A stretch of DNA of 17,439 nt from a bacterium (GTDB lineage Bacteria; Bacteroidota; Ignavibacteria; UBA10030): NCBI GenBank assembly GCA_043803945.1, contig JAZDJN010000005.1, positions 1 to 17,439 of the forward strand, written 5' to 3'. The notes under the pieces are model-generated. The model was not told the origin of the DNA and did not search any database. It saw only the letters and a program-made list of their open reading frames with translations. The translations under genes were made by a program, and so were the position numbers. Below, piece by piece: positions 2,181 to 17,439 of the stretch (within the stretch, counting starts at the first letter, position 1; every line of letters starts with the position of its first letter).

Positions 2181-5045
2181 TTAGTGAGTTACCAGATATT
2201 TTTTTAAATATTTGCCCGTGTGCGATTGTGGTACAGATGCAATTTGTTCCGGAGTCCCTGTGGCCACAACTTGCCCGCCTGCAGCGCCGGCCTCCGGGCC
2301 CAGGTCGATGATGAAATCGGCGCACTTCACAACATCCATATTGTGCTCGATGACAATGAGTGAGTGTCCTGCTTCAACAAGAGCGTGGAAGCAATTTAAA
2401 AGTTTGGCAATATCGTCAAAGTGCAGCCCGGTTGTCGGTTCATCGAAAATAAAGAGTGTCTTCCCCTCTGCCTCTGATGCCTGAAGATGATTCGCCAATT
2501 TAATACGCTGTGCTTCGCCCCCGGAGAGTGTGGTGGCGGGCTGCCCAAGTCGGAGGTATCCCAGGCCCACATCATTGAGCACTTTGAGTTTATGGACCAC
2601 TCTTTTTGCATGAGGAATGTCAGAGAAGAAAACGATCGCCTCGGTGACAGTCATGCGCAGAATATCATCCACATTCTTTCCATGGCAGCGAATTTCCAGC
2701 ACCTCTTGCTTAAAGCGTTTTCCTTTACATGATTCGCATGTAAGATGGAGGTCTGCAAGAAATTGCATTTCAATCTTCTGCACACCATCCCCTTCGCAGA
2801 GGTCGCATCTGCCGCCAGGGACATTGAAAGAAAAATGCCCCGGCTTGAAACCGCGAATCTTGGCGGCCTGAGTTCCTGCCAGGAGATCGCGGATTAGATC
2901 AAACACTTTTATGTAGGTGGCCGGATTGGAGCGAGGGGTGCGGCCGATGGGAGATTGATCGACCAATTCAATCCCATGGATGTGCTCTCCTCCCTGTATC
3001 GATTCCACCTTGCCGACGCTTCCTTCAAATCCTCCCTTCTGCTTCTGAAGCCCCGCAAAAAGGATTTCGTGGACGAGCGTACTTTTTCCCGATCCACTGA
3101 CACCCGTGATACACACAAACATGTTCAACGGAATTCGAACATCGATATGTTTTAAATTATGCTGTGATGCACCTTTGACGTACAGTGAGCGTTCGCCATC
3201 CTTCCGGCGCTGCAGCGGCAATGGAATGACTGACTGCCCGTTGAGATAGTGCGCTGTCAGCGATTGCGTGTTCGAGAGCAATGCCTCCGTTGGCCCGACG
3301 AATACAACTTCACCTCCGTATTCACCGGCCCGCGGCCCCATATCCACCAGAACATCAGCCGCGCGCATCATATCTTCATCATGCTCGACGACGATGACAG
3401 TATTGCCGACATCCCGCAACGATTGAAGAATAGCAATGAGCTTGTTGTTGTCGCGTGGATGCAGGCCGATGCTTGGTTCATCGAGCACGTAGAGCGACCC
3501 GACGAGTGTCGAACCGAGTGCTGTGGCAAGATTGATACGCTGCGACTCGCCGCCGGAGAGTGTCATGCTCAGCCGTTCCAGCGAAATATATCCGATGCCG
3601 ACATCATAGAGGAATTTCAGTCTGCGGCGTAGTTCATCCAGAATTCGGCGGGCAATATCCATTTCGAAGGGGCTCAATTCAAGCGAGAGGAAAAATTGAT
3701 AGGCCTCATCGATTGTCATGCGGACAATATCGTGAATGGTTTTTCCGGCAACACGAATGTTCAGGGCATCGCTGCGAAGCCTGGCACCGCTGCACAAATC
3801 GCAGGTCGTGTATCCCCGATAGCGCGAGAGCAACACACGGTAATGAATTTTATACGATTTGCTCTCGATGAATTTGAAAAACTTGAACAGGCCGTCGAAC
3901 TTGCCGTGGCCTTTCATAATGATTTCGCGGTGTTTTTCCGAGAGTTGGCTGAACGGTACATTCACGGGCAGCCCTGCGGAAAAAGCAACGTCGAGCATTT
4001 CCAACGCATATTTACGCCACTTTGGAGTTGTCCATGGATGGATAGCACCCTGCCGGAGTGTTTTCTTTGGATCGGGAACAACGAGATCCATATCGATACC
4101 CATTGAACGGCCGAATCCCTGGCACTTGGGGCAAGCACCAACCGGATTGTTGAAGGAAAAGAGGCGCGGATCGGGATCCTCATATCGCAGGCCATCGTTC
4201 CGGCATTCATAATGCTGTGTGAAATGGAGGAGATGCAGCGTCTCCATGAAATAGAGATAGCAGTAGCCGTCGCCTTCGACAAAGGCTGCCTCGATAGAAT
4301 CTGCAAGACGCGATTCACTTTCTTTTTCACCTTTTCGGAGGATGATCCTGTCGACGAGGACAAAAATTCCTTTCTTGCTCTTCGCCTTGAATTCCTGTTC
4401 GTTCAAATCGATCAGTTTGCCTTTGACGACAATCCGGAAAAATCCTCGTTTCTTAAGAACATCAAACTCCTCCTTGAGCGAACGGCCTGGATGGTCGTGC
4501 AGTGGGAACATCACATAGAGTTTTGTTCCATCCGGTTCCTGATGCAGCCGGTCAACGACAGTGGAAACTGTATCGCGCTTGACGAGTTCGCCACAGGATG
4601 TGCAATAGGTGTGCCCTATCCTGCCGAAGAGCAGCCGGAGATAGTCATAAATCTCAGTACTGGTAGCAACGGTGGAGCGGGGATTGCGAGTAGAGGTTTT
4701 CTGTTCGATAGCTATGGACGGGCTGATGCCCTGGATGAAATCGACATCGGGCTTATCCATTCGTTCAAGAAACTGGCGGGCATAGGAAGAGAGGCTCTCA
4801 ACGTATCGCCGCTGCCCCTCGGCATAGATCGTATCGAACGCGAGGCTTGATTTGCCCGAACCGCTCACACCGGTAACCACGATAAGCTTATTGCGGGGCA
4901 GCTCCAGACTCACATTTTTAAGGTTATGGACTCTCGCACCACGGATAATGATGGAAGTGAGTTTCCTTGCCGGCCTGATGTTTTCCCCTTCTGCCGTCAA
5001 TTTCTTCTCTTCGGGCTGTTTCGATATGTTCTTTGATTTCGGCAT
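2181..5045 (-). CDS. uvrA: Excinuclease ABC subunit A (UvrA)
   Basis: 954 aa. [13 protein letters not shown], two Walker A motifs (GVSGSGKS), [12 protein letters not shown], signatures LSGGESQRI and LSGGEAQRI, Walker B LDEP/FDEP, and CxxC zinc modules. Confidence 0.97.
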
Positions 5046-5555: not shown

Positions 5556-5862
5556 AGCCTCAAAATGTTCCCGCAGAAGAACATCACTCATCAACAAATC
5601 CGCTCATTATCTTACCCCGTTATATACAAATGGAAAACAAATTATCCTTTGGGTGAACTATGATGAGAAATTACGAAAAAGGAATAGAACCGAAATTATG
5701 GCAGGTGGGAATTTTGGACAGTGTTTCTTTTCCATATGTATAAAGGAATTAAGACATATCCTCTTCCATTGCTTTTCGTGTTGGCTCTCTCTACATTCTA
5801 TCAACATCACCATTGCAATCCTCATGATCAATAATCGTTCATACCTTTCTCAGGAGACCGCC

Positions 5863-7143
5863 ATGAAAAATATTTTAGCTGCTCTTCTCAGTTTAATCTG
5901 GTTTGCGGCTTATGCCCAGGAAGACCAGTTGTTGGTCCGCCTGAAGGCCTTGCCCGATGTGGCGGAAGTACAACCTGCACGAGTCGATCCGCTTTTCAAA
6001 TCGGGGTACGAGCTTCGCATTCGGCAGCCGCTCGATCATGCCAATCCATCGGGAAAGACTTTTCTTCAATCGGTCTATCTTTCACACGCTGATTTCGATA
6101 AACCCGTTTTGTTTGAGACCGAAGGATACTCTGCACGGAGTGGAAGCATGCCGAAGGAGTTGACCTCAATACTCAAATGCAATCAGATTATCGTGGAGCA
6201 TCGGTACTTTGGAAAATCGAGTCCGGATACATTGCACTGGCAGTATCTCACCACAAAACAGGCAGCCGACGATCATCATCATATCGTTCAGTTATTGAAG
6301 AGCCTCTACAGAGGAAAATGGATAAGCAGCGGCACAAGCAAAGGGGGGCAGACGACTTTATTTTTCCGTTACTATTATCCAAAGGATGTCGATGTGAGTG
6401 TTGCCTACGTGGCGCCGGTCAATGTCTCTCAGGAAGATCCCCGTTTGATCAAGTTCCTGCGGGCTGTTGGGACCGAAGAAGTGCGAGAGAAGATTAAAAA
6501 GTATCAGATTGCGATGTTGAAGCGGGAGCCCGAGATGCTGCCGATGATTGACACGTTGGCGAAGAAGAGAAATCTCACCTTTTCTATTGGAAGGACGCTG
6601 GCGTACGAGTATGGTATTCTTGAATATGCATGCAGTTTCTGGCAGTCTGGCCATTCTGCCGATCAGATTCCGCCGCCCGATGCTCCTGCTGACTCGATGA
6701 TGAATTATTTCGATAAGATCGGCACATTATTTTACTACACCGATCGCGGCATTAAAACGTTCGAGCCATTCCAATATCAGGCATACACCGAAATCGGGTA
6801 TTACGGGTATGACATTTCCGATTTCAAGCAATACCTCACAGCGATGAAAAACCCAACGAACAGTATTCTTGCGCCGAGGAATGTCGAGTTAAAATTCAAT
6901 CCGGTGACGATGTATAATGTTTATTCCTGGCTTCGCGACTATGGGAGCAATATCATCTACATCTATGGAGAGACTGATTTGTGGGGAGCTACTGCTGTAG
7001 AGCTTTCGGGCATGACCAATGCTTTGAAGATTGTAAAGAAAGGTGGTGCACATTCTACCAGAATCAGGACTCTCCCGCGCGAACAGCAGGAACAGGTGTT
7101 CGGAGCTTTGGAGGAGTGGCTGGGAATAAATTTGGAATGGTGA
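5863..7143 (+). CDS. Secreted serine aminopeptidase, S37/S28-like alpha/beta hydrolase (PS-10/tripeptidyl aminopeptidase-like)
   Basis: Likely start at ATG 5863 after AGGAG, followed by a signal peptide. Motifs QPLDH, VEHRYFGKS, QAADDHH, nucleophile elbow G-T-S-K-G-G, IYIYGETDLW and GGAH. Confidence 0.85.
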   Translation: MKNILAALLSLIWFAAYAQEDQLLVRLKALPDVAEVQPARVDPLFKSGYELRIRQPLDHANPSGKTFLQSVYLSHADFDKPVLFETEGYSARSGSMPKELTSILKCNQIIVEHRYFGKSSPDTLHWQYLTTKQAADDHHHIVQLLKSLYRGKWISSGTSKGGQTTLFFRYYYPKDVDVSVAYVAPVNVSQEDPRLIKFLRAVGTEEVREKIKKYQIAMLKREPEMLPMIDTLAKKRNLTFSIGRTLAYEYGILEYACSFWQSGHSADQIPPPDAPADSMMNYFDKIGTLFYYTDRGIKTFEPFQYQAYTEIGYYGYDISDFKQYLTAMKNPTNSILAPRNVELKFNPVTMYNVYSWLRDYGSNIIYIYGETDLWGATAVELSGMTNALKIVKKGGAHSTRIRTLPREQQEQVFGALEEWLGINLEW

Positions 7144-7372: not shown

Positions 7373-7657
7373 ATGCAAATCTCCAGAGAGGTTGTGCGAT
7401 ATAAGCCATTACTCGATCGAATGGTTGCGGAATTAAAGCTCAGGGACTATCCAACCAGAGATCGAGTTCTCACACTGTCAAACAGGACAGGCCGATATGA
7501 GACCATCGAGTCAAATCGGAGCTGTAGACGCGCAATCGTTCAACCTGCCTCTTCTCAACAAACCACACAGTGCATCCTTACCATTGAGCTCCGCAAGTGT
7601 GAATTCATTCTCAAAGATATTCAAGACAACTTTTTCGCGAGAGCGTTCCGTGGCTGA
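7373..7657 (+). CDS. Possible small or degenerate integrase N-terminal (SAM-like) domain ORF
   Basis: KPLLDRMVAELKLRDY resembles the recombinase N-terminus KKLFDVLGQEMRLRNY. Its stop lies just after the GTG at 7650. Could be a pseudogene remnant. Confidence 0.35.
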   Translation: MQISREVVRYKPLLDRMVAELKLRDYPTRDRVLTLSNRTGRYETIESNRSCRRAIVQPASSQQTTQCILTIELRKCEFILKDIQDNFFARAFRG

Positions 7658-8513
7658 GAAACCGAAAAAACTGTTTGATGTTTTGGGGCAGGAGATGAGA
7701 CTGAGAAACTACAGTCCTGAGACCATCAAAGCGTATAAATGCTGCATTCGATCGCTCGCCGCTTTCGTCGCGCCAAAGCATCCTCGTGATTTAACCGGTG
7801 AAGATATACGTAAATTTTTGGTCTATCAAGTTGACTTCAAGAAGCTCTCATCTGGAACGATCACCCAGATGATCAACGCGTTTCGATTTCTCTATGTCGA
7901 GATGTATAAACGGCCACTGGTTTTGACCGACCTCAAGCGCCCCCGTAAGGAATATAAACTTCCGGTAGTTCTTTCAGAAGAAGAGGTGAAATCGTTATTT
8001 GAGTCATTGGGAAACATTAAACATCGTGCGATGATGATGCTTGTCTATTCGGCGGGATTGCGGGTTCGAGAGTTAGTGCAGTTAAGGCCTGAGGATATTG
8101 ACAGTGATCGAAAGATGATTCACATCCACGGGGGCAAGAAAAAGAAGGATCGATATACAATTCTTGCTGATGTTGTGTTACAGGGATTGCGAGAGTATTG
8201 GAAAGCATACAGACCCAAGCAGTGGTTATTTGAGGGACGGAGAGAGGGCAAACCATATTCTCGGCGAAGTGCGGAGAAGGTATTTGAAAATGCAAAGGAG
8301 AAAGCGGGTATTTGCAAGCGAGTTTCGATTCATTCTCTGCGGCACGCTTTTGCAACTCATTTATTGGAACAGGGAACAGATATTCGATTCATACAGGAGC
8401 TTCTTGGGCACAGTAGTGTACGGACGACAGAGATCTACACACATGTGAGTAAGAGAAGAATTGAGGCGATCAAGAGCCCGATTGAACAGGTCATGCAGAA
8501 GAAACGGACATAA
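7650..8513 (+). CDS. Tyrosine recombinase, integron-integrase-like (N-terminal SAM_4-type domain plus catalytic domain), lacking the IntI-specific insertion
   Basis: EMRLRNYSPETIKAY N-domain and LPVVLSEEEV. Catalytic residues R (GLRVRE), K (GGKKKKDR), HSLRH, LLGH and Y (TTEIYTHV) are intact. The frame is open from ATG 7497, but similarity starts near GTG 7650, so the start is uncertain. Confidence 0.9.
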   Translation: MAEKPKKLFDVLGQEMRLRNYSPETIKAYKCCIRSLAAFVAPKHPRDLTGEDIRKFLVYQVDFKKLSSGTITQMINAFRFLYVEMYKRPLVLTDLKRPRKEYKLPVVLSEEEVKSLFESLGNIKHRAMMMLVYSAGLRVRELVQLRPEDIDSDRKMIHIHGGKKKKDRYTILADVVLQGLREYWKAYRPKQWLFEGRREGKPYSRRSAEKVFENAKEKAGICKRVSIHSLRHAFATHLLEQGTDIRFIQELLGHSSVRTTEIYTHVSKRRIEAIKSPIEQVMQKKRT

Positions 8514-8583
8514 TCACACTTTTTATTCGCCCATGAACCACATTGTGTTACAAACACGCAATTCGATATTGCAATAGTTATGC
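8514..8583 (+). other. Predicted attI-like primary recombination site (crossover G8577|TT)
   Basis: GTTATGC core at 8577-8583, 63 bp after the recombinase stop, with no attC body upstream. The sequence after it is the imperfect reverse complement of the sequence before the first attC (8996-9025), as at every other cassette start. It is preceded by the palindrome TATTGCAATA. The left boundary is uncertain. Confidence 0.7.
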
Positions 8584-9018
8584 GCGATGGGCTCGGGGCG
8601 TGCACGTTGGTTGAAGACAGCAGAACAAGAACGTCGTGGTGCTTTGCACCACGGCGAGCGAGTATTCATCAAAAAAAGTGGGAATCGATAGAGTTGCCTG
8701 GAATGAACAAAGTGTCGAATGGTAGTGAGTGACCGTCTCATTTGAGACATTCGTGAATTGAGAATATATTGAACTGATAAGGACAGGTATTGTGGAGAGA
8801 TTTCGTTACTCGTCTGAGTGTCTTGCTTGTAGGTCACTCACGAACAGAAGACACTTTGTTCAACACCAAAAAGTCTCTTTTAGTTCCCATTTTTTTGCTG
8901 CATCCACGGTGAAGCTGTGTCTGACTCGCTCTACATTCTTGTTCTATTATAGGAGGTAAGAAGAGACGACGAGGTTGATCGGAGGTCAACAACGGAACGT
9001 GTACCCCTCGCCCACCTC

Positions 9019-9165
9019 GCATAACAATACGGCAAAATGACGCTCGCTCTTTTATACAACCTCCCTAAAGCATTGTGCTCGCTCCATTGCAGCGCAGAAG
9101 GTGAGCTACAATACTAAGAAAGAAGTCAGTTTGCGCTGCAACGGCATTTTGCCTGTACGTTATGC
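9019..9165 (+). repeat. attC-like site 1
   Basis: GCATAAC...GTTATGC with inner stem GGCAAAATG/CATTTTGCC and conserved CGCTCGC and GTGCTCGCTCCA motifs. Confidence 0.9.
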
Positions 9166-9206
9166 GCCACCAATGGCGATCAATTCACTTAAACTAGGAG
9201 AAATCT

Positions 9207-9488
9207 ATGGCAAAAATTTTCGTTGTCGATCAGGAGCACAAAGCCGACGTAAAGGTCTATGCAACAAGCCAAGAATATTCTGCCGACCTTCTATATCACA
9301 TCGTTGACCAAGAGTACAATGCCAAAGGTGATGTGCTCTGGTTCTACGTTAGTGCAGAATATCAGTCTACCTGTAAGATATTCTGGGTTGACCAAGAACA
9401 CAGAGCCGATCTCAAAGTGTTCAAGGTTGATCAAGAGTACCAAGCAAAATGGAATAAGAATCATCGTTTTCAGAACAGACTAGGATAA
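9207..9488 (+). CDS. Small internally repetitive protein, DUF6150-like (cassette gene)
   Basis: 93 aa with AGGAG RBS and repeated (I/V)(F/Y)xVDQE(H/Y)xAD units. Confidence 0.7.
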   Translation: MAKIFVVDQEHKADVKVYATSQEYSADLLYHIVDQEYNAKGDVLWFYVSAEYQSTCKIFWVDQEHRADLKVFKVDQEYQAKWNKNHRFQNRLG

Positions 9489-9495
9489 ACAAGCC

Positions 9496-10038
9496 ATGCC
9501 ATTCTTTATCTATACCATCGACAAGCAATCCAACGAACTTGAATCTTTCTCCAGTCCCAAAGAAATATCTTTGGCAGGTGCAGCAGGACCGATCGCTAAG
9601 TTCGTTCGCAGCAAGATCAACAGTAGCACAAGACCACCTTTTGAGTGGCACATGACCGAACTTGAGCTTGTGCACTCCCTTGGCTTCACCGACGAAGAAA
9701 CATTTTATCGTGCTGTTATCATCGACCTGAAACCAGGGGACAAGTCTCACGCTCACCTTTATAGGATTCGAGACATCTGGGGATACACCTACTCCGATTG
9801 GACTCCTATTTGTGTTCGCCTTGAGGAACTACGGATCGATTCGAAGGTTTCTCCTAATGTTATCAAGAAAGGATTCACAGTATCCGGGTATCTCAACGAT
9901 CCCGTAATTGAGTTTCTCTATCTTCGTGGTGGATTGGATACGAAAGGTTGGCCGTGGGGGCCAGTTGGCTCTGTAAATGGTGTGTTGCTTTGGCCTGATG
10001 CGTTGAAATATTTTTTGTCTGCCATTGGCGGCGCATAA
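9496..10038 (+). CDS. Hypothetical protein (second gene of the same cassette)
   Basis: 180 aa, starting 7 bp after the previous stop. Its TAA lies inside the GCATAAC box of attC2, a typical cassette arrangement. Confidence 0.75.
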   Translation: MPFFIYTIDKQSNELESFSSPKEISLAGAAGPIAKFVRSKINSSTRPPFEWHMTELELVHSLGFTDEETFYRAVIIDLKPGDKSHAHLYRIRDIWGYTYSDWTPICVRLEELRIDSKVSPNVIKKGFTVSGYLNDPVIEFLYLRGGLDTKGWPWGPVGSVNGVLLWPDALKYFLSAIGGA

Positions 10039-10189
10039 CAAACGGCAAACCGGCGCTCGCACACTGGATAGGCGAAGTTGAAACGATGGTTGGCTAGATG
10101 TAAAGTGCTCGCTCCATTGCTCGCCGCCGCAAGGGATGAGTCTTTCATATGCGGCGGCTCACAACGGCGGTTTGCCTTGAACGTTAGCC
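10033..10189 (+). repeat. attC-like site 2
   Basis: GCATAAC...GTTAGCC with stem GGCAAACCG/CGGTTTGCC. Confidence 0.9.
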
Positions 10190-10308
10190 GCCATGCGGCA
10201 CGATTTGGTCAGCTCCAGATTTGGGGAACGCATTTAGCAAAGTGCTAAACAGTAGCTCGCCGCATGCGAGCCAAGAATTGTCAATCAACCCTGGAGGTGC
10301 TAAGTTTC

Positions 10309-11484
10309 ATGCAATGCTTAGGGAGGACGAAAAGAGGGAGATGCAAACTTTCCGTGAACGAACTCTGGCCGTTCTGTTCTCATCATACATGGCAGCCATT
10401 TGTCACGGCATTTGCTGTCCTGAGTGTCATAGGGGTATTTCTTGCGTTCTATAATGATCTGCGCGAGGCAATTCTTGAGCCTCTCAAATCCTCGAACATG
10501 AACGCAGATGCAATCCAAAACGACGGTTTCTTGGAAATGAAGTCCCTAAGGACATTCCAAGGCCCTTTCTATAGCTGCAACATGTTCATCCCGATATTCC
10601 ACATTATGAACTTGCGAAGCGAGGAACTTGTAGTTTCGCAGATTGACTTCTACTTTGTGAATCCGAAGGTACAAGAGCTAATTCCAGGTTTTCCGGCAGA
10701 TCGCTACGGTAGCTACTTCCACTTAAAGCACTCTGGAGGCTACTGGAGAGCCAACGAAGAACGCGTTGTGATGTCAGACTCTTTTCCCACCGGCCCCGTT
10801 TTCATTCCTCGCGAAGTTTACGTGGAGATCTATCATTCGGGATCAGAGGCCGGATCACACTTTCGCTTTGCTCTAAGCAATGACAAAGACGTCGAGTACT
10901 GGACAAAGCCAAGGCATATTGATTTCGATAAGTTGGATGTTGGCATAGATAGATTGCACGCATATCGGCAGGCAAAAGATTTTGCAGACCAGCTGATGCA
11001 CACCAAGGGACTGGCAATGGGTATTCCGATGAAGACAATCGCGACCAAGCTGCCAAACGCATTGGACAACGTAGCGATCACCGAATGGGGTTTCTTGTTT
11101 GCAGGTTTTCAAGAAGGTCGAGGGATATGGGTAAACATTGACAGTGCCGGGGCTAGAGGAGGTGTGGTCACCTCGATATCACACCCCGATCTTTGCGCGT
11201 TCCTAGTAAGAGCATCGACAAAACCGCTCATTATTGGCACCCGTCAGGCAGTATCAATCGCTGATCAGAACAATCTCATCTTTGCAAATACTTGCCAAGG
11301 AGTCTGGCTTGAGCCGGACGGCTTAGTTGGCGAAGAAAGGCATCCGATCTGGAAACTCCCGTATGTAGGTAGCAACTATATGACACTTTTCATAGATGGG
11401 TTCACAGGCGAAGTTCTCGAAGAGGATTTGGAATATCAACGAAAGGGTAAAGGCCCACCATGGAGATTTCGAACTAAAAAGTGA
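10309..11484 (+). CDS. Hypothetical membrane-anchored protein with an N-terminal Cys/His motif
   Basis: Start placed at ATG 10309 (GGAGGT upstream; the frame is open from 10264). CLGRTKRGRC...FCSHH is a putative Zn-binding motif, followed by one TM helix. The C-terminal W...FIDGFTGEVL is reminiscent of PepSY-like ends. Confidence 0.7.
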   Translation: MQCLGRTKRGRCKLSVNELWPFCSHHTWQPFVTAFAVLSVIGVFLAFYNDLREAILEPLKSSNMNADAIQNDGFLEMKSLRTFQGPFYSCNMFIPIFHIMNLRSEELVVSQIDFYFVNPKVQELIPGFPADRYGSYFHLKHSGGYWRANEERVVMSDSFPTGPVFIPREVYVEIYHSGSEAGSHFRFALSNDKDVEYWTKPRHIDFDKLDVGIDRLHAYRQAKDFADQLMHTKGLAMGIPMKTIATKLPNALDNVAITEWGFLFAGFQEGRGIWVNIDSAGARGGVVTSISHPDLCAFLVRASTKPLIIGTRQAVSIADQNNLIFANTCQGVWLEPDGLVGEERHPIWKLPYVGSNYMTLFIDGFTGEVLEEDLEYQRKGKGPPWRFRTKK

Positions 11485-11645
11485 GCAACCTTGACTGAGG
11501 ACAACCGCGATTGGCTCCCACAATCTGAAGAAAAAGAAGGGTCTACTCTCGTCGGATGATGGTTCCAAGGCTGTTACAGCGATTTGACAATAATAGCGTG
11601 AGAATAGAAAAGCATAGCAGGCACACTTATCTTCAAGGAGACATT

Positions 11646-12218
11646 ATGAAATTGGTATTCGCACCGAGCGTCCTTATCGTGCTACTTTGCACCTACTTTG
11701 CGTGTAGTCAACAGAAAAAGCAAGCCAATCAACCTTTCATGATATCAATTGAAGGGGAAGTATTCCAAGAGAGTGATATCAACTTTTTGTATCCCGCGAA
11801 GAGTCAATTGGCTTACAGGGTCAAGGTAAGTCTAAAGAACACTGGAGAACAGACATTGGAGTTTGACCAAATCGAGACTGCGTTTGTACCACAGGGTGGA
11901 ACTCCATTGAAACAAATGAGTGGCATACGCAGAAAAGGATCACAACAAAATGAGAAGGTAACGCTGGAGCCAGGATCTGTCAAAGAGTTTCCAGCGTTTA
12001 CGAGCGATGGCTATACGAACGATCTCATAAGCGATGCCCGAGGTAGACCTCTAAGATTTTCAGTTTCGCTTCTTTCTTTGGGCCAACGCTTGTTCGGGCC
12101 AACCATGGCTGTCCTTCCTGATATCAAGAAGCTAAGTACTTTGCCTTCGTATCATCAATCCTTGTCCGACAAGAAAGTCAAGGGATTTCCATTGACTTTT
12201 TCGTTGTCAAGTCCGTAG
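11646..12218 (+). CDS. Hypothetical lipoprotein
   Basis: AAGGAG then ATG 11646, followed by a hydrophobic stretch ending YFAC (lipobox-like) and a beta-rich domain (VKVSLKNTGEQTL). Confidence 0.7.
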   Translation: MKLVFAPSVLIVLLCTYFACSQQKKQANQPFMISIEGEVFQESDINFLYPAKSQLAYRVKVSLKNTGEQTLEFDQIETAFVPQGGTPLKQMSGIRRKGSQQNEKVTLEPGSVKEFPAFTSDGYTNDLISDARGRPLRFSVSLLSLGQRLFGPTMAVLPDIKKLSTLPSYHQSLSDKKVKGFPLTFSLSSP

Positions 12219-12284
12219 CCTCCGAGGAAGAATGTGAAACATCATCAAAGGAATTATTGTTTTCAGCTTTTGTGCCGCACGAAC

Positions 12285-12428
12285 GGCTAACAAAACTAAG
12301 CACGCCGCTCGCACATTGGCAAGGCTCTCGCACGAGCCAACGCACGCGCAATAAGTTGTGCTCGCTCCACCCCGCCGTCAATTATAGAACATCGATGGCG
12401 GGGCGGCGTGCTTACTCGAACGTTAGGC
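12285..12428 (+). repeat. attC-like site 3 (divergent)
   Basis: GGCTAAC...GTTAGGC with stem TAAGCACGCCGC/GCGGCGTGCTTA. GTGCTCGCTCCA is retained. Confidence 0.88.
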
Positions 12429-12456
12429 GGCATTTGCCATCATAATGGAATGACAT

Positions 12457-12966
12457 ATGGATCGAAATGTTTCAATTGTGCCTTACTATCAATATCAGAG
12501 AGAGTATCAACGAATCAGGATTATTACTCCATTCTCAACACTATTTATTACTATCATTGTTGTCATTTTTTTTCTCATCGGAAATTGGATTTTCAAAGGA
12601 AAAGAAAGTCCTGATGATGCGTTAAAGATGAAGGTAAAAAAAATCGAGGACATTGGGGGAACGCTCGAAGATCTTTCCGAATACTTGCAACAACAGAAGA
12701 CTATTATCATCGCCCAGGATGAGCAGATCAAGAAGCTTAATAAGGCCAATCAGGATCTCGAGCCCATTGTCAAAGCAAAACAAGAGATCGTAGATGCGAT
12801 TATCTTCGAAGCCCAGAAGAAAGCTGAGGACAATTCCTGGCGAGACAGGTTAATTGGGATAGCAATTGGAATTATCAGTTCCTTGTTTGCTACTCTTATC
12901 TGGCATTTCTTCCTTGCAGACAAGTGGATTACTTCAAGAATGAAACCGAGAGCAAACTCAATATAG
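12457..12966 (+). CDS. Hypothetical membrane protein (two TM helices flanking a coiled coil)
   Basis: 169 aa that fills the cassette, with two hydrophobic segments and a heptad-like K/E/Q-rich middle. Confidence 0.75.
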   Translation: MDRNVSIVPYYQYQREYQRIRIITPFSTLFITIIVVIFFLIGNWIFKGKESPDDALKMKVKKIEDIGGTLEDLSEYLQQQKTIIIAQDEQIKKLNKANQDLEPIVKAKQEIVDAIIFEAQKKAEDNSWRDRLIGIAIGIISSLFATLIWHFFLADKWITSRMKPRANSI

Positions 12967-13010
12967 TACCTAATTAACGTAATCCTAAAGGAGTTTTCCT
13001 GGCAAACGCC

Positions 13011-13166
13011 GCCTAACAATCGGCAAACCGACGCTCGCTCTCTGTAGAAGCAAGAGTAAACCTAAGATTGGCTCGCTATAAAGAGCTCGCTCCATTGCTC
13101 GCCGCCGCAAGGAATGGATTTTTCGTATGCGGCGGTTCGCAACGGCGGTTTGCCTGAACGTTAGGC
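13011..13166 (+). repeat. attC-like site 4
   Basis: GCCTAAC...GTTAGGC with stem GGCAAACCG/CGGTTTGCC. Confidence 0.9.
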
Positions 13167-13222
13167 GCCACCGCAACTCACAATCGACATTTTTCTAACC
13201 ATATGGCTGAACACAAAACACT

Positions 13223-14029
13223 ATGGACAATCAACTTGCTCTAGGAAAGATTCGAAAATCCATTGCCGAAGCTCAAAATGCCTTTGAAGAAGCGGTCTTT
13301 TTAGGCCACCCTTCTGATCCGGCTTGGTCCATTGAAACCGCTTTCTTAATGACTCTCTCTCTTGTTGAATCTCTTGGTCTTCACAAGCTACATCAGATGC
13401 TCTTGTCAGATTTCAGAAAGATCAAGAATTCCAAAGAAGGCTTCTCCAAGGACGAGCAGGATGAATTCACCGAAGAACCATACCCAGTCCACCTTTCGAA
13501 GTTGCGTCAATACCTACATTCAATCGAATCATTTTTTCCAGATGACAAGGATACCATCGTTTCGAAAGACGTTCTGAACATATTACGAGACATCCATTAT
13601 ACGATTGCCGACAAAACTCTTTTTGGGTGTGCTCCGAGTTCAGAAAAGGATGTTCACCTGAGGATAGAGGGCATTTTGAAGCCATTGTTCCCCGATTTGA
13701 AACACAAGCCCTCGCTAACAAAACAGATCAAGAATTTCGAGCCTGATACTGGCATCCCCTCTATTAGGACACTCATAGAGTACAAGTATCTCGATTCCAA
13801 GAAGTCGATTCCCGTCCTTGCCGACCAAATCCTCGCAGACACTCGAGGCTATGTGTCTAAGGAATGGAATCGTTTCATCTATGTCGTATATGAGACCAAC
13901 CGATTTCGATCAGAGAAGGATTGGAATCAGTTACTTGCTCAGTCCGGTTTATCAGACAACTCAGTGGTTGTAGTCCTTAGCGGTGAACCATCAAGGAAGA
14001 CGGCACGACGAAGATCTCAAATGAGTTGA
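13223..14029 (+). CDS. Putative PD-(D/E)XK nuclease with a DpnII/MboI-like C-terminal domain
   Basis: 268 aa with SEKDVH...ILKPLFPD...FEPDTGIPSIRTLIEYKY...QILADTRGY, giving an E...PD...ExK arrangement. The N-terminal domain is helical. Confidence 0.65.
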   Translation: MDNQLALGKIRKSIAEAQNAFEEAVFLGHPSDPAWSIETAFLMTLSLVESLGLHKLHQMLLSDFRKIKNSKEGFSKDEQDEFTEEPYPVHLSKLRQYLHSIESFFPDDKDTIVSKDVLNILRDIHYTIADKTLFGCAPSSEKDVHLRIEGILKPLFPDLKHKPSLTKQIKNFEPDTGIPSIRTLIEYKYLDSKKSIPVLADQILADTRGYVSKEWNRFIYVVYETNRFRSEKDWNQLLAQSGLSDNSVVVVLSGEPSRKTARRRSQMS

Positions 14030-14061
14030 CTTTTCTTCATGATTTCTAGGAATGCGGCGGC

Positions 14062-14219
14062 GCCTAACAATCGTGCTTGCGACGCTCGCTCGTTTGGTTA
14101 TGTCGAATAGGAATCTAAACAACGGTATATCAATTGTGCTCGCTCCATGCCGTCCGGCCACGAGAAATGAATCATTCTTACGTGGCCGGTCGGCACGGCG
14201 GTTTGCCTGTACGTTATGC
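14062..14219 (+). repeat. attC-like site 5 (chimeric, inner arms not complementary)
   Basis: GCCTAAC...GTTATGC. The left arm GTGCTTGCG faces the right arm CGGTTTGCC. Confidence 0.85.
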
Positions 14220-14244
14220 GCAATTGGCTTGTGGAGCGTTTCCT

Positions 14245-14814
14245 ATGAAAACCCTTCGTCTTGTTCGCTCGACACACTATCTCGTGGTTGCAATGAGCTT
14301 ACTGCTCGGCCAATCCAGCCTGGAAGCACAACAATCATCAAGTGCTGCTGCGGAGGACTGCCCCATTTGGATGAACATCGGTATGGGTGGCGGGTCAACT
14401 GGTGTCTCGCTCGGAACAAGCCTTTCCTATGAACTTGAGAGTAGCCTCCTCACTCTTCGCTATATTTACAATAAAGAAATAGAATTGTTGGGAGATTCCA
14501 CCCCCTGGGAATCAGTCTCTGACATCGGCGTCCTTTATGGCATCATGACCAAAGCATCATACGGGATGGCTTCCTTATCTGCAGGTATTAGTACTGTCAG
14601 AGGAGTTCGCCGAGGCGGGTTCATAGCAAAGACTGGATTGTTTTCAACCACGTACGCGGAGATACGCTTTTCTACCGCGGGAATCCCATTGGAGGGACGA
14701 CTATATTGGCGGACTTCGTCTAGCTTCGGAATCGGCATATATGTCGTCGGAAATCTGAATGATCAGAAGTCCTTCATCGCTGCGCAACTCTCTGTTGAAG
14801 GAACACTGTGGTAG
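14245..14814 (+). CDS. Hypothetical secreted protein, probable outer-membrane beta-barrel
   Basis: GGAG then ATG 14245, signal peptide ending LEA-Q, Gly/aromatic amphipathic strands and a terminal W. Confidence 0.65.
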   Translation: MKTLRLVRSTHYLVVAMSLLLGQSSLEAQQSSSAAAEDCPIWMNIGMGGGSTGVSLGTSLSYELESSLLTLRYIYNKEIELLGDSTPWESVSDIGVLYGIMTKASYGMASLSAGISTVRGVRRGGFIAKTGLFSTTYAEIRFSTAGIPLEGRLYWRTSSSFGIGIYVVGNLNDQKSFIAAQLSVEGTLW

Positions 14815-14828
14815 CACAAGCCAACTGC

Positions 14829-14984
14829 GCCTAACAAACGGCAACACGGCGCTCGCACGCTGGATAGGCATGGGAGAGGCTAGGATTGGCTAAATGTTAA
14901 GTGCTCGCTCCATTGCTCGCCGCCACAGCTTACCGGTCATTCGATTGTGGCGGCTCGCAACGGCGTGTTGCCTAAACGTTAGGC
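14829..14984 (+). repeat. attC-like site 6
   Basis: GCCTAAC...GTTAGGC with covaried stem GGCAACACG/CGTGTTGCC. Confidence 0.9.
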
Positions 14985-15017
14985 GCAACGCTTCGTCACT
15001 GGACATTTGAGGGCGTC

Positions 15018-15875
15018 ATGAATTCTTCCACCATGTTCGCTAGGATCGTCTTCACCTCCGCCGTTCTGACCGTGCCACTGTTTTCCCAGTACGCTCAAAT
15101 GGAATTCCCTCTACAAGTAGGTGATCGCTGGCAATTCTCCGAAGTCCAGGGACCGCCGGGCGTCGAAGAGTCGCGGGTCATTAGTGAGGCAATCATGGCG
15201 AATGGGCTCAAGTACGCGGTGATCGCCGGCTCGATGGCAGCAGGTAATTATCGCAAAGAAGGATCCAAGGTTTACCAGTGGATATCCTCGGCTGATAGGC
15301 TCATCTGCGATTTCTCGAAGAAGCCAGGAGACACATTGGCTGTTTATCCAAACGGTCCCGATTCCACAATGGTTGTTGTTATGGATCAGGGCCTCTGGAT
15401 GTGTTTCGACCAACTGCGCTTTCAAATGAGGTTCAAACACGTCAGTTATCGATCTCCGGGGCACATAAGAGCCATTTACCACGTCGCGGACAGCGTGGGT
15501 TTCGTCAGGCTGGACCAGGAGACCGTACATTTTTGGCTCGTCGGCGCTGTCATCAACAGCAGACAGTTCGGTCTCGTAACTTCCATTGCCAAGGCTCAAT
15601 CGGATATGCCCACCGGTGCTCAACTCTTGCAGAATTATCCGAATCCGTTCAATGCTACCACAATGATCTCTTTTCGCATCAACGTGGCATCTGAGGTTTC
15701 GATCAGAATCCATGATCTTATGGGTCGCAAGATTGCCTTGGTGCTGTCTAGACATCTTCTGGCCGGTTCATACAGCCTCAACTGGGATGCTTCACTGTGT
15801 CCAAGCGGTGTCTACTTCTGCAACCTTGTCGCTGGCTCGACGGTGAAGACGACAACGATGATTCTGCTCAAATAA
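15018..15875 (+). CDS. Secreted protein with a T9SS type A C-terminal sorting domain
   Basis: Signal peptide. The C-terminus reads LLQNYPNPFNATTMISF...IHDLMGRKI...WDAS..PSGVYFCNL...TMILLK. Confidence 0.88.
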   Translation: MNSSTMFARIVFTSAVLTVPLFSQYAQMEFPLQVGDRWQFSEVQGPPGVEESRVISEAIMANGLKYAVIAGSMAAGNYRKEGSKVYQWISSADRLICDFSKKPGDTLAVYPNGPDSTMVVVMDQGLWMCFDQLRFQMRFKHVSYRSPGHIRAIYHVADSVGFVRLDQETVHFWLVGAVINSRQFGLVTSIAKAQSDMPTGAQLLQNYPNPFNATTMISFRINVASEVSIRIHDLMGRKIALVLSRHLLAGSYSLNWDASLCPSGVYFCNLVAGSTVKTTTMILLK

Positions 15876-15889
15876 GCACGAAGCGCTGC

Positions 15890-16045
15890 GCCTAACAAAC
15901 GGCAAACCGGCGCTCGCACGCTGTATAGGCGGGGGAAGTACAAGAGTGGCTAAATGTAAAGTGCTCGCTCCATTGCTCGCCGCCACAGCCATTGAGTCTG
16001 TTCGATAGTGGCGGCTCGCAACGGCGGTTTGCCTAAACGTTAGCC
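15890..16045 (+). repeat. attC-like site 7
   Basis: GCCTAAC...GTTAGCC with stem GGCAAACCG/CGGTTTGCC. Confidence 0.9.
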
Positions 16046-16081
16046 GCAACCGCTCGTAATAATTTTCTGAAAGGAATAACT

Positions 16082-16468
16082 ATGATATGTCCAGCTTGTA
16101 ATAATACAGCCACGACTGTATTCCGTGATCTCTATTCTCTTCAAGGAGTTACCATTTTCCAGAAGTACAAAGGGTATCTTAATTGCCATTCGTGTGGTGC
16201 GACTCTTCGTGTGGCTGGTTATGATAAAAGGATTTGGTACTACTACATCCCATTACTATTTATCATAGCGGTGTTCGTTTCATTCTATAATTCTTGGTCC
16301 CCAATAGTCTTATCTTGGCTCGAAATCATCGGGCCAGTTGCAACAGTTATTATATCTTTCTGTTTAATCATCCTTATTCCTTTCATAATTGATTATAGCT
16401 TCTTGAAGTATGCTCGTGTCGAGATAACTGGTAATCCCGCTAGCTCGACGATAGGAGTTCATACCTGA
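16082..16468 (+). CDS. Zinc-ribbon (CxxC...CxxC) membrane protein with two TM helices
   Basis: CPAC...CHSC followed by two hydrophobic segments, with an AAGGA RBS. Confidence 0.75.
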   Translation: MICPACNNTATTVFRDLYSLQGVTIFQKYKGYLNCHSCGATLRVAGYDKRIWYYYIPLLFIIAVFVSFYNSWSPIVLSWLEIIGPVATVIISFCLIILIPFIIDYSFLKYARVEITGNPASSTIGVHT

Positions 16469-16497
16469 TTTTTCAATTGTATCTCACGAGCGGCTGC

Positions 16498-16649
16498 GGC
16501 TAACAATCGGCAAACCGACGCTCGCTTGCTGTAAAGTCTTAAACGAACCAAACAGGGCTTGATAAATTGTGCTCGCTCCATTGCTCGCCGCCACGGAATG
16601 AATTAGTCATAGTGGCGGCTCGCAACGGCGGTTTGCCTAAACGTTAGGC
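16498..16649 (+). repeat. attC-like site 8
   Basis: GGCTAAC...GTTAGGC with stem GGCAAACCG/CGGTTTGCC. Confidence 0.9.
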
Positions 16650-16742
16650 GGCATGTGGCTTTTGTAAGTTGATAAGATGTACCATGCTATTCAATGAGAA
16701 GTAGTTATCCATCATATTCTTACATTAGGAGGAGATAACCTT

Positions 16743-17096
16743 ATGCGCCGCAAAGATTATATGTTCATGCTGATTCTTGTTATGCTTTCAAGTTTCCTAG
16801 GTGGAGCCTTCATGAGTTGGTTGCTTTTAGATAAGGTAGCCTTTGCTCAGGTCGATGATAAACCGGCAACAATAATCAGGGCTAAGGCTTTCCAATTAGT
16901 GGATGATAGAGGGAGGATCCGAGCTAATCTATCTTGTTATAATCCTTCAAAGGTTGTAAATAAACGTATAAATGATTCGGTAATGCATTCTCAGATAGAA
17001 GTGCGTCAGGATGAAGTGAGGTTTGAATTGATGGATGCGAGTGGGACGATAGTCTGGTCAGCTCCTCAATCATTTAAACCAACATTTATCAAATAA
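16743..17096 (+). CDS. Hypothetical exported or membrane-anchored protein
   Basis: AGGAGGAG RBS, N-terminal hydrophobic segment ending AFA-Q, and an IRAKAFQLVDDRGRIRA motif. Confidence 0.75.
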   Translation: MRRKDYMFMLILVMLSSFLGGAFMSWLLLDKVAFAQVDDKPATIIRAKAFQLVDDRGRIRANLSCYNPSKVVNKRINDSVMHSQIEVRQDEVRFELMDASGTIVWSAPQSFKPTFIK

Positions 17097-17151
17097 ATGT
17101 TATTGGCTATAATAAATTTCAATCTAGAGACATAACTATATGCCACACGCC

Positions 17152-17307
17152 GCCTAACAATCGTGCTTGCGACGCTCGCTCATCTGGTTATGTCGAATAG
17201 GAATCTACATGGCGGTATGTCAATTGAGCTCGCTCCATTTCGTGCCGCCACGGAATTGAGCTTTTATAGTGGCGTCACTCAACGGCGCAAGCACTCAGAC
17301 GTTATGT
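17152..17307 (+). repeat. attC-like site 9
   Basis: GCCTAAC...GTTATGT with stem GTGCTTGCG/CGCAAGCAC. Confidence 0.9.
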
Positions 17308-17439
17308 GTCATGTCCGCCAGCACTTTTTTTGAAAGTAAAAGAATCACTTGGGGCCTATCTAGTGGTGGTAAATTCTTTAAGCAGTGCCTCGCACAACGG
17401 AAGACCAAATCAATAACGGCTTATTCATCAAGGTGCTGG

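Follow-up and report, generated by a model that had tools for sequence, protein, structure and literature searches.

Canonical integron attC sites are recombined by IntI as a folded bottom strand and consist of an R box (RYYYAAC/GTTRRRY), an unpaired central spacer, an L box, and a variable loop. One account gives the R box as a 7-nt RYYYAAC (PMC7439510). A related substrate comes from Xer recombination. Escudero et al. describe that CTX-phi integrates as a hairpin without extrahelical bases, which imitates a duplex for Xer enzymes that have no I2-like domain (PMC4792948). In layout, close counterparts are the inverted-integrase integrons (PMC4889954) and the archaeal integrons (10.1101/2022.02.06.479319), in which the integrase gene runs on the same strand as the cassettes and insertion takes place immediately past the integrase stop codon. 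Here we analyze contig JAZDJN010000005.1 of an Ignavibacteria genome (GTDB UBA10030; assembly GCA_043803945.1), the complete 17,439 bp of which we call the window; the genome has 5.54 Mb in 118 contigs at 46.5% G+C. Downstream (3') of an integrase gene, and on its strand, the window carries nine complete integron-like cassettes and a truncated tenth, with plus-strand open reading frames (ORFs). Nine attC-like repeats of 144-158 bp divide the cassettes. Our subject is the long complementarity between the start and the end of each cassette, and the mismatch that interrupts it.

The locus shares features with each of these systems and departs from each. [quoted passage not shown] Unlike CTX-phi/XerCD, it encodes its recombinase next to numerous arrayed cassettes, each of which has a site of its own, and this recombinase is nearer to IntI than to XerC or XerD. 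The same-strand integrons agree with the window in orientation and insertion point, but their integrases are described with the additional domain of IntI, which the window's integrase lacks. Recombinases without the IntI C-terminal profile near attC sites, the subject of supplementary Figures S1 and S5 of PMC4889954, may bear on the novelty of the clade described below. In the literature searched, we found no description of attC arms as long as these, nor of arrays beside an I2-less integrase.

Cassette ends in the window pair with their own partners

Every cassette start (34 nt, counted from the G of GTT) was set against every cassette end (the 34 nt up to and including R''), the latter reverse-complemented. 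A cassette start is complementary to its own end over 16-21 nt, whereas no non-self pair exceeds 13 nt (two mismatches) and most reach 8-10. The residual similarity of non-self pairs arises because the core GTTAKSCGSM is common to the starts. With at most one mismatch, the self pairs extend over 19 nt (9159/10039, 14978/15896, and 16039/16504), 18 nt (12422/13017), 17 nt (16643/17158), and 16 nt (13160/14068). The pair 14213/14835 spans 21 nt with two mismatches. There are two looser pairs: 8577/9025 covers 16 nt with two mismatches and carries on past a 1-nt shift, and 10183/12291 aligns given a 1-nt bulge. The first cassette boundary was placed at 8577 because 8577-8608 pairs with 8996-9025. 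An earlier note on this DNA had listed these nine pairs and described their sequence as different in each cassette. All nine are present, with equal counts (18/19, 17/18, 15/16, 19/21, etc.; Table 1), and the gap between self and non-self pairs bears out the second statement.

The same note had pointed to an invariant mismatch at position 11, counted from the G of GTT, and this too is found. All 10 starts carry A there, and all nine ends present C opposite it, with a one-base shift in the cassette that begins at 10183; the top strand thereby has an A-C mismatch and the bottom strand a T-G wobble. A reading of the ATG at positions 11-13 as a start codon was dropped, as the ORFs start further downstream.

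The truncated tenth cassette had been predicted to end in a near reverse complement of its start, with C opposite A11. The last 25-55 nt of the window occur on no other contig of the assembly, and the continuation of this cassette was not found. The assembly contains just one relative of it, on contig C90: a paralogue that is 85% identical over 140 nt and begins with the same 27 nt. The end of the paralogue is a near reverse complement of that start, with C opposite A, a 1-nt bulge, and a 2-nt internal mismatch. The corresponding outer-arm family, CATGTCCGCCAGC (window 17301-17326; C90 and C99; L023 and L026), occurs in several genomes, always with the same 2-nt internal mismatch; in its two arms GTCC is direct, not inverted.

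The arm is conserved in 15 genomes of the order

Of 151 genomes sampled in the order, 56 encode a relative of the integrase (48-68% identity); by genus, the count is 41 of 80. In all 15 genomes that yielded cassette pairs, these relatives lie directly upstream of such arrays. At 26 loci of integrase relatives, we scanned the downstream DNA with a fold-based detector and an L-stem detector, both heuristics of our own; a search by nhmmer with a profile of the window attCs had returned few sites in the relatives, and structure-based detection was used in its place. Pairs were kept when consecutive sites lay 150-3500 bp apart and at least six of the first seven positions matched. Of 107 candidate pairs, 70 passed; they comprise 67 unique cassettes, which are spread over 21 contigs or loci and 15 genomes, all belonging to the same order. 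The genome of the window itself holds about 34 further attC-like sites on other contigs.

Across the 67 cassettes, identity between a start and the reverse complement of its own end is 76-100% at positions 1-10, falls to 4% at position 11, and recovers to 78-84% at positions 12-17; it then declines to 63% at position 18 and about 50% at positions 19-20, reaching background by position 23. Position 11 is A in the start and G in the reverse-complemented end in 52/67. Ungapped arms with up to two mismatches are at least 16 nt long in 42/67. When one 1-nt bulge is permitted, 59/67 arms reach at least 16 columns (median 20) and the A/G column is present in 58/67; seven cassettes form a variant with an extra end-side base just inside the mismatch. 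Over positions 12-20, self pairs match at 6.4 of 9 positions and the 4422 non-self pairs at 2.7 of 9, and none of 2000 partner shuffles reached the true mean. The arms are kept across several families of the order.

Positions 11-13 are semi-conserved, with A in 65/67 starts and then T in 45/67, as might be expected of an accessory site that the integrase or a host factor reads by sequence as double-stranded DNA. From position 14 outward, however, all four bases are found at every paired column, so that it is the pairing that is conserved and not the sequence, and we regard such a site as very improbable. The earlier note had offered an extra recombinase-binding arm as one explanation; sequence-specific binding is unlikely at positions 12 and beyond, because those positions differ between cassettes.

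Canonical integron cassettes have shorter arms

To compare with canonical arrays, we used an alignment of three canonical IntIs as the query and obtained 80 loci from many phyla, with 43-49% identity along the whole protein, additional domain included. Applied unchanged to these loci, the fold-based detector and the pair filter returned 116 candidate pairs; 67 were retained, 64 of them unique. Rms149 and pYT1, both class 1 plasmid arrays, were left out, with only one or two cassettes each, and at the Shewanella plasmid locus the fold-based detector detected no attC. In the canonical cassettes, identity is 89% at position 7, drops to 72%, 66%, and 55% over the next three positions and to 30% at position 11, and is at background further out. 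When up to two mismatches are allowed, the longest run is 10 in the median cassette and never more than 15, so that 0/64 reach 16 nt, compared with 42/67 in the window's class. Equally long pairing, which would have told against the earlier note, is therefore not routine in canonical arrays. That note also held that descriptions of classical self-complementarity normally stop at the R''/R' core. The literature does give a 7-nt R box, but the canonical cassettes measured here pair over about 9-12 nt, and the statement stands for the published definition and not for the measured arms.

The plasmid 1 array of Gemmatirosa kalamazoonensis (L047 20900-40000) has a canonical IntI with about 35 cassettes downstream, and its ORFs favor the same orientation, 24 to 9. 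As in the window's class, own-end pairing (here through position 11) is followed by a mismatch of A in the start and G in the reverse-complemented end, with the same polarity. Unlike that class, the mismatch is at position 12 (17/32 unique cassettes), there is no complementarity past position 13, and the integrase has the additional domain. The longest runs have a median of 11 and a maximum of 15, with none of at least 16. Given the same-polarity A/G at position 12 in Gemmatirosa, mismatches at the R-arm edge may have an older origin and a wider distribution than the I2-less clade.

One could suppose, then, that the long arms are an ordinary property of integron cassettes, or a chance similarity swollen by the conserved core. 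Canonical cassettes do pair past the 7-nt core, to a median of 10, and Gemmatirosa pairs through position 11 with its own A/G column. Yet 16 nt is reached by 0/64 canonical and 0/35 Gemmatirosa cassettes, and the non-self pairs of the same arrays are at background, so we give this explanation hardly any credence. The observation is confirmed as real, conserved, and distinct from canonical arrays.

In other respects the sites are like canonical attCs. All nine in the window carry an inverse core RYYYAAC and a core GTTRRRY, and they share with canonical sites the R''/R' consensus cores, a probable G|TT crossover, an internal loop followed by a covarying L stem, and co-oriented cassettes; the first bases of a cassette are, likewise, part of its own attC. 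They differ in an R arm of about 20 bp against about 10 measured, in the fixed T-G/A-C at position 11, in a consensus L stem that is uninterrupted and has no conserved extrahelical base, and in an adjoining integrase without I2. The arm is best read as an architectural variant of attC associated with the integrase lineage that lacks I2.

The adjoining integrase is IntI-like but lacks the I2 domain

The integrase is covered by TIGR02249 at model positions 4-179 and 242-314 only, with 214.9 bits against a cut-off of 265, and scores 153.8 with NF011946 against a cut-off of 435. In an alignment with IntI1, Shewanella IntI, and Gemmatirosa IntI, about 38 residues are absent where the additional (I2) domain of IntI, some 35 residues near patch III, lies, and the catalytic residues do not vary (in IntI1 numbering, R146, K171, H277, R280, H303, and Y312). 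Among proteins of solved structure, VchIntIA (2a3v) is the nearest relative, with a match at E 1e-41 that falls into two stretches; XerA and XerD (1.6e-27 for XerD) rank behind it. Scores fall below the equivalog cut-offs for XerC (193 versus 335) and XerD (192.5 versus 330). The protein marginally passes the archaeal XerA model NF040815 (224.3 versus 220); however, that model's name covers 'integron integrase' and the best solved relative is an IntI, and we did not file it as XerA.

A quick maximum-likelihood tree, supported by the SH-like approximate likelihood ratio test (SH-aLRT) only and with four other recombinases of this genome as outgroup rows, places 45 canonical IntIs in one clade (support 100) and 17 I2-less proteins outside it, as a clade or a grade. 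Canonical and I2-less proteins together are split from the four other recombinases with support 96. Many of the integrase relatives lie at contig ends, which is expected because they adjoin repeats. Canonical IntI genes occur in 63/151 genomes of the same order, sometimes alongside the I2-less type. The genome of the window also has a canonical IntI, complete with additional domain but in pieces: its N-terminal part sits at contig ends (C45 and C70), and its C-terminal part is on C41 (L044 1569-2315, minus strand), with a different attC type downstream. In the C41 part, the HSxR region is separated from the LLGH region by an intervening 86-aa ORF, which by its sequence resembles a GIY-YIG nuclease.

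The attC stems covary in cis, and the full arm would form only across a joined cassette

Two observations support the view that cassettes move as units cut at G|TT: own-end pairing starts from GTT, and a mosaic junction is found on contig C90. There, the 3' part of an attC is near-identical to the window's first attC and is followed by the cassette that is 85% identical to the truncated last one; in a three-way alignment the switch of partner falls inside ACGTTATG. If the crossover is at G|TT, each cassette opens with bases that form part of the attC at its opposite end.

When the nine attCs were circularized in silico at this point and both strands were folded, as had been proposed, the outer arm, R box, and wobble were predicted to form a single continuous stem. 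The mean predicted fold energy of the bottom strand is -49.4 kcal/mol, compared with -47.8 for the top strand; in array context, the bottom strand comes to -39.8, and the outer helix would contribute about 10 kcal/mol. The bottom strand is predicted to be the more stable in 8/9 cassettes. In the array, by comparison, pairing between the R'' flank and the start of the next cassette is short, its median at 29 sites being 6 nt with one mismatch and 8 nt with two; positions 12-20 are at background, and the A/G column is still present in 25/29 sites. Given a G|TT crossover, the full arm is absent from the attCs of the array, in keeping with the earlier suggestion that the long outer stem forms only in the excised circle.

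Mismatches within the arms also point to one strand. With the fixed column set aside, they are of bottom-strand wobble type in 32 cases and of top-strand type in 8, with 45 transversions. Such a bias could come either from selection for bottom-strand pairing or from deamination of a bottom strand that is often single-stranded; both implicate the bottom strand. Compensatory changes are seen as well. Two homologous neighboring cassettes in one relative (L024) differ at arm positions 17 and 19, changed on both sides together, and other homologous cassettes show double compensatory changes at positions 5-7. For 18 sites of the genome, RNAalifold gives a consensus of 29 pairs, 19 of which show compensatory changes; each L-box pair has 5-9 such sequences. 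These sites fold in cis, and compensatory change keeps their stems. The consensus L stem has nine uninterrupted pairs, with a bulged G in some single-sequence folds.

The weakness of the cis R stem in the array (median 6-8 nt), next to the roughly 20 bp offered by a cassette's own ends, raises the idea that these ends pair across the cargo on single-stranded DNA, joining the flanking attCs and excising one cassette, with position 11 as a hinge. The L boxes speak against such a closing stem: they covary within each attC (5-9 compensatory sequences per pair), which disfavors pairing of neighboring attCs across a cassette, and show no covariation between neighboring attCs, which differ in L type in the window. 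Partners would also have to meet over 0.3-3.5 kb, and the fixed identity of the unpaired base would be left unexplained. We therefore judge it improbable. Register-shifted (trans) folding was set aside on the same cis covariation of the L boxes.

A further alternative is that the arms are remnants of a palindromic attC module that was duplicated around the cargo when the cassette was born, with no present function past position 11. In its favor, 15 of 24 cassette pairs with near-identical outer arms have interiors without a tblastx match at 1e-6, one arm family spans four genomes, and there are ORF-less mini-cassettes with little besides arms, such as a 141-nt unit in G040. On the other hand, the arm is retained in 59 of the 67 cassettes, in 15 genomes and several families; homologous cassettes show the compensatory double changes; mismatches are skewed 32 to 8 toward bottom-strand wobbles; and the arms lie mostly in non-coding flanks, where drift ought to erase pairing that is not selected. 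A purely historical trace is thus unlikely, though it deserves more weight than the closing stem.

A proposed role for the outer arm

The interpretation that we consider probable is that the repeats are the outer part of a long, bipartite R arm of attC, made of a Xer-like core of about 10 bp, the T-G wobble, and a helix peculiar to each cassette, which would reach its full length only in the excised circle. In this arrangement, positions 1-10 would be the semi-conserved core GTTAKSCGSM, which on the bottom strand resembles a binding arm of Xer type. Read on that strand, GTTATGCGCA-type starts have a 9-mer in common with the 11-nt XerC arm that Carnoy and Roten print for E. coli dif (PMC2731167). 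No dif-like 28-bp duplex site, with two 11-bp arms around a 6-bp center, came up, though no search for one was made. At position 11, the fixed A of the start would lie opposite the C of the end, as a T-G wobble in the folded bottom strand and as A-C on the top, and this would favor the bottom strand over the A-C-bearing top strand. Measured from the cleavage site, an 11-bp arm would end at position 12, which would put the wobble at its outer edge, about one helical turn from the scissile bond. A further 6-12 bp beyond position 11 would then be cassette-specific yet complementary.

The full 20-bp arm would form only once a cassette has been excised and circularized, and it would clamp the base of the folded bottom-strand attC. 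Insertion of the free cassette at attI would then have a far better folded substrate than excision, which has to start from the hybrid attCs of the array. As the outer arm is free in sequence but paired, it fits a clamp better than a binding site, as judged from its sequence. Since this clamp would be complete only in the excised circle, its likeliest role is a bias toward the folding and re-insertion of free cassettes, with poor excision from the array; a role of the outer stem in directionality, as first suggested, is plausible. The enzyme is most likely the adjacent I2-less integrase. Canonical IntI uses I2 to read extrahelical bases, and an integrase without it may therefore depend on a longer, more duplex-like arm.

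Several points weigh against this interpretation. Recombination, folding, and binding are all deduced from sequence, not from experiments or reads. C-to-T deamination of a frequently single-stranded bottom strand could explain the 32:8 bias equally well. The outer arm AATTGTTTTGC is found in four genomes on cargo without detectable homology, and because of this recurrence, arms may be inherited with the attC module; shared descent of that module fits the pattern as well as selection does. The genome also encodes a canonical IntI, interrupted, which makes the adjacent integrase the probable and not the certain acting enzyme. The sole complete cassette beside that canonical IntI has a perfect 17-nt arm, so arm length alone is not exclusive to the I2-less clade, and seven cassettes beside canonical IntIs of the same order have runs of 9-19; the position-11 mismatch was seen in none of these same-order cassettes. 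Finally, attC detection relies on our own heuristics, and the pair filter discarded 37/107 pairs here and 49/116 in the canonical set.

It is possible, though we hold it with reserve and think the opposite likelier, that these arrays are a distinct integron lineage, in which an integrase that branched beside canonical IntI without I2 uses a long, Xer-like, duplex-imitating arm on folded cassettes, with the wobble as the strand mark and the outer helix as a clamp confined to the circle. If so, the T-G wobble would replace or supplement extrahelical bases as strand mark, and the clamp would bias the system to capture over loss. Such arrays would also represent a living intermediate between Xer/IMEX hairpin recombination and integrons, and would offer a handle on how attC modules join genes. 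The system bears on two questions about integrons, namely, the origin from Xer-type enzymes of an integrase that reads a folded strand and the acquisition of attCs by cassettes. What can be measured is a conserved extension of the R arm with a fixed wobble, tied to an I2-less integrase in about one-third of the sampled genomes of the order, and arm length, wobble, and missing domain can each be changed separately and scored in one system. Tools that define integrons by the I2 region would label these arrays integrase-less.

Features of the window and related observations

Table 1. Coordinates of the integrase gene, cassette arms, and attC sites in the window
Feature	Coordinates	Strand	Remarks
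Tyrosine recombinase, IntI-like, without I2	7695..8513	+	ORF 7497-8513, likely start 7695; co-oriented with the cassettes
Putative attI region	8514..8576	+	Between integrase stop codon and first crossover GTT; attI function presumed from sequence
Cassette 1 start arm	8577..8608	+	Versus 8996-9025; 16 nt with 2 mismatches, A/G at position 11, resumes after 1-nt shift
Cassette 1 end arm and R''	8996..9025	+	Start/end comparison
attC 1 (R'' to R')	9019..9165	+	Alignment, fold-based detection, consensus fold
Cassette 2 start arm	9159..9177	+	Versus 10021-10039, 18/19; predicted to fold as one continuous stem
Cassette 2 end arm and R''	10021..10039	+	Overlaps last codons of ORF 9496-10038
attC 2	10033..10189	+	Alignment, fold-based detection, consensus fold
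Cassette 3 start arm	10183..10201	+	Versus 12272-12291, with 1-nt bulge
Cassette 3 end arm and R''	12272..12291	+	Start/end comparison, 1-nt bulge allowed
attC 3	12285..12428	+	Alignment, fold-based detection, consensus fold
Cassette 4 start arm	12422..12439	+	Versus 13000-13017, 17/18
Cassette 4 end arm and R''	13000..13017	+	Start/end comparison
attC 4	13011..13166	+	Alignment, fold-based detection, consensus fold
Cassette 5 start arm	13160..13175	+	Versus 14053-14068, 15/16
Cassette 5 end arm and R''	14053..14068	+	Start/end comparison
attC 5, chimeric	14062..14219	+	attC alignment; missed by both structure-based detectors
Cassette 6 start arm	14213..14233	+	Versus 14815-14835, 19/21
Cassette 6 end arm and R''	14815..14835	+	Start/end comparison
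attC 6	14829..14984	+	Alignment, fold-based detection, consensus fold
Cassette 7 start arm	14978..14996	+	Versus 15878-15896, 18/19; start/end comparison and fold
Cassette 7 end arm and R''	15878..15896	+	Start/end comparison
attC 7	15890..16045	+	Alignment, fold-based detection, consensus fold
Cassette 8 start arm	16039..16057	+	Versus 16486-16504, 18/19
Cassette 8 end arm and R''	16486..16504	+	Start/end comparison
attC 8	16498..16649	+	Alignment, fold-based detection, consensus fold
Cassette 9 start arm	16643..16659	+	Versus 17142-17158, 16/17
Cassette 9 end arm and R''	17142..17158	+	Start/end comparison
attC 9	17152..17307	+	Alignment, fold-based detection, consensus fold
Truncated tenth cassette start arm	17301..17326	+	Partner beyond contig end; C90 paralogue shows expected partner

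To the left of the array are chromosomal genes, including those for UvrA (2181-5045) and an S37 peptidase (5653-7143). Positions 1-55 are repeated at the start of contig C9 and within C21, i.e., the contig starts in a repeat. Cassette 1 (8577-9158) has no plus-strand ORF recognized by Pfam but has internal hairpins, and it may be non-coding. Pfam gave no match for its two minus-strand ORFs or for ORF 16743-17096, and an Rfam search of the window gave 0 matches. The TAA inside R'' is the stop codon of ORF 9496-10038, the last six codons of which fall in the end arm; the remaining arms are non-coding. In attC 5, the 5' half has the L'' of the type found at 17152-17307 and the 3' half has the L' of the common type. 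Because L'' and L' come from two different attC types, this L box cannot pair. Homologous exchange in the conserved center or an assembly join could be the source of the chimera.

One cassette protein bears a type IX secretion sorting domain, which would suit a Bacteroidota-related bacterium. The cassette encoding a protein with this type of tail (15019-15863) has counterparts in short public peat metagenome contigs at 97-99% identity. In that public run (Logan contigs), 0.06 of the sampled words were present, and coverage was mainly of the attC repeats and the cassette 14978-15896. The joints seen there have short sides of 21-27 nt, inside repeats, and nothing was concluded from them.

Other observations concern cassettes and attCs elsewhere. 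The AATTGTTTTGC arm was found in L022, L023, L131, L141, L144, and C35; the cassettes that bear it measure 0.75-3.2 kb, and between genomes their interiors show no detectable homology. L023 (reverse strand) has, at 8220-8360 and 17541-17681, 141-nt mini-cassettes that are hardly more than two arms and are possibly empty attC modules. On contigs C15, C40, C81, C87, C90, and C99, some attCs hold nested palindromic inserts of 15-45 nt in the L box or loop, such as CCCCGCTTCGCGGGG and CCCCGAT...ATCGGGG, which resemble miniature mobile hairpins. At about 1726-1900 on C83 and about 256-439 on C90 (minus strand), the GTT of R' is replaced by ACTGCTT, followed by the shared sequence TCAATGTCAAGAGAA, which suggests an element inserted exactly at the crossover point.

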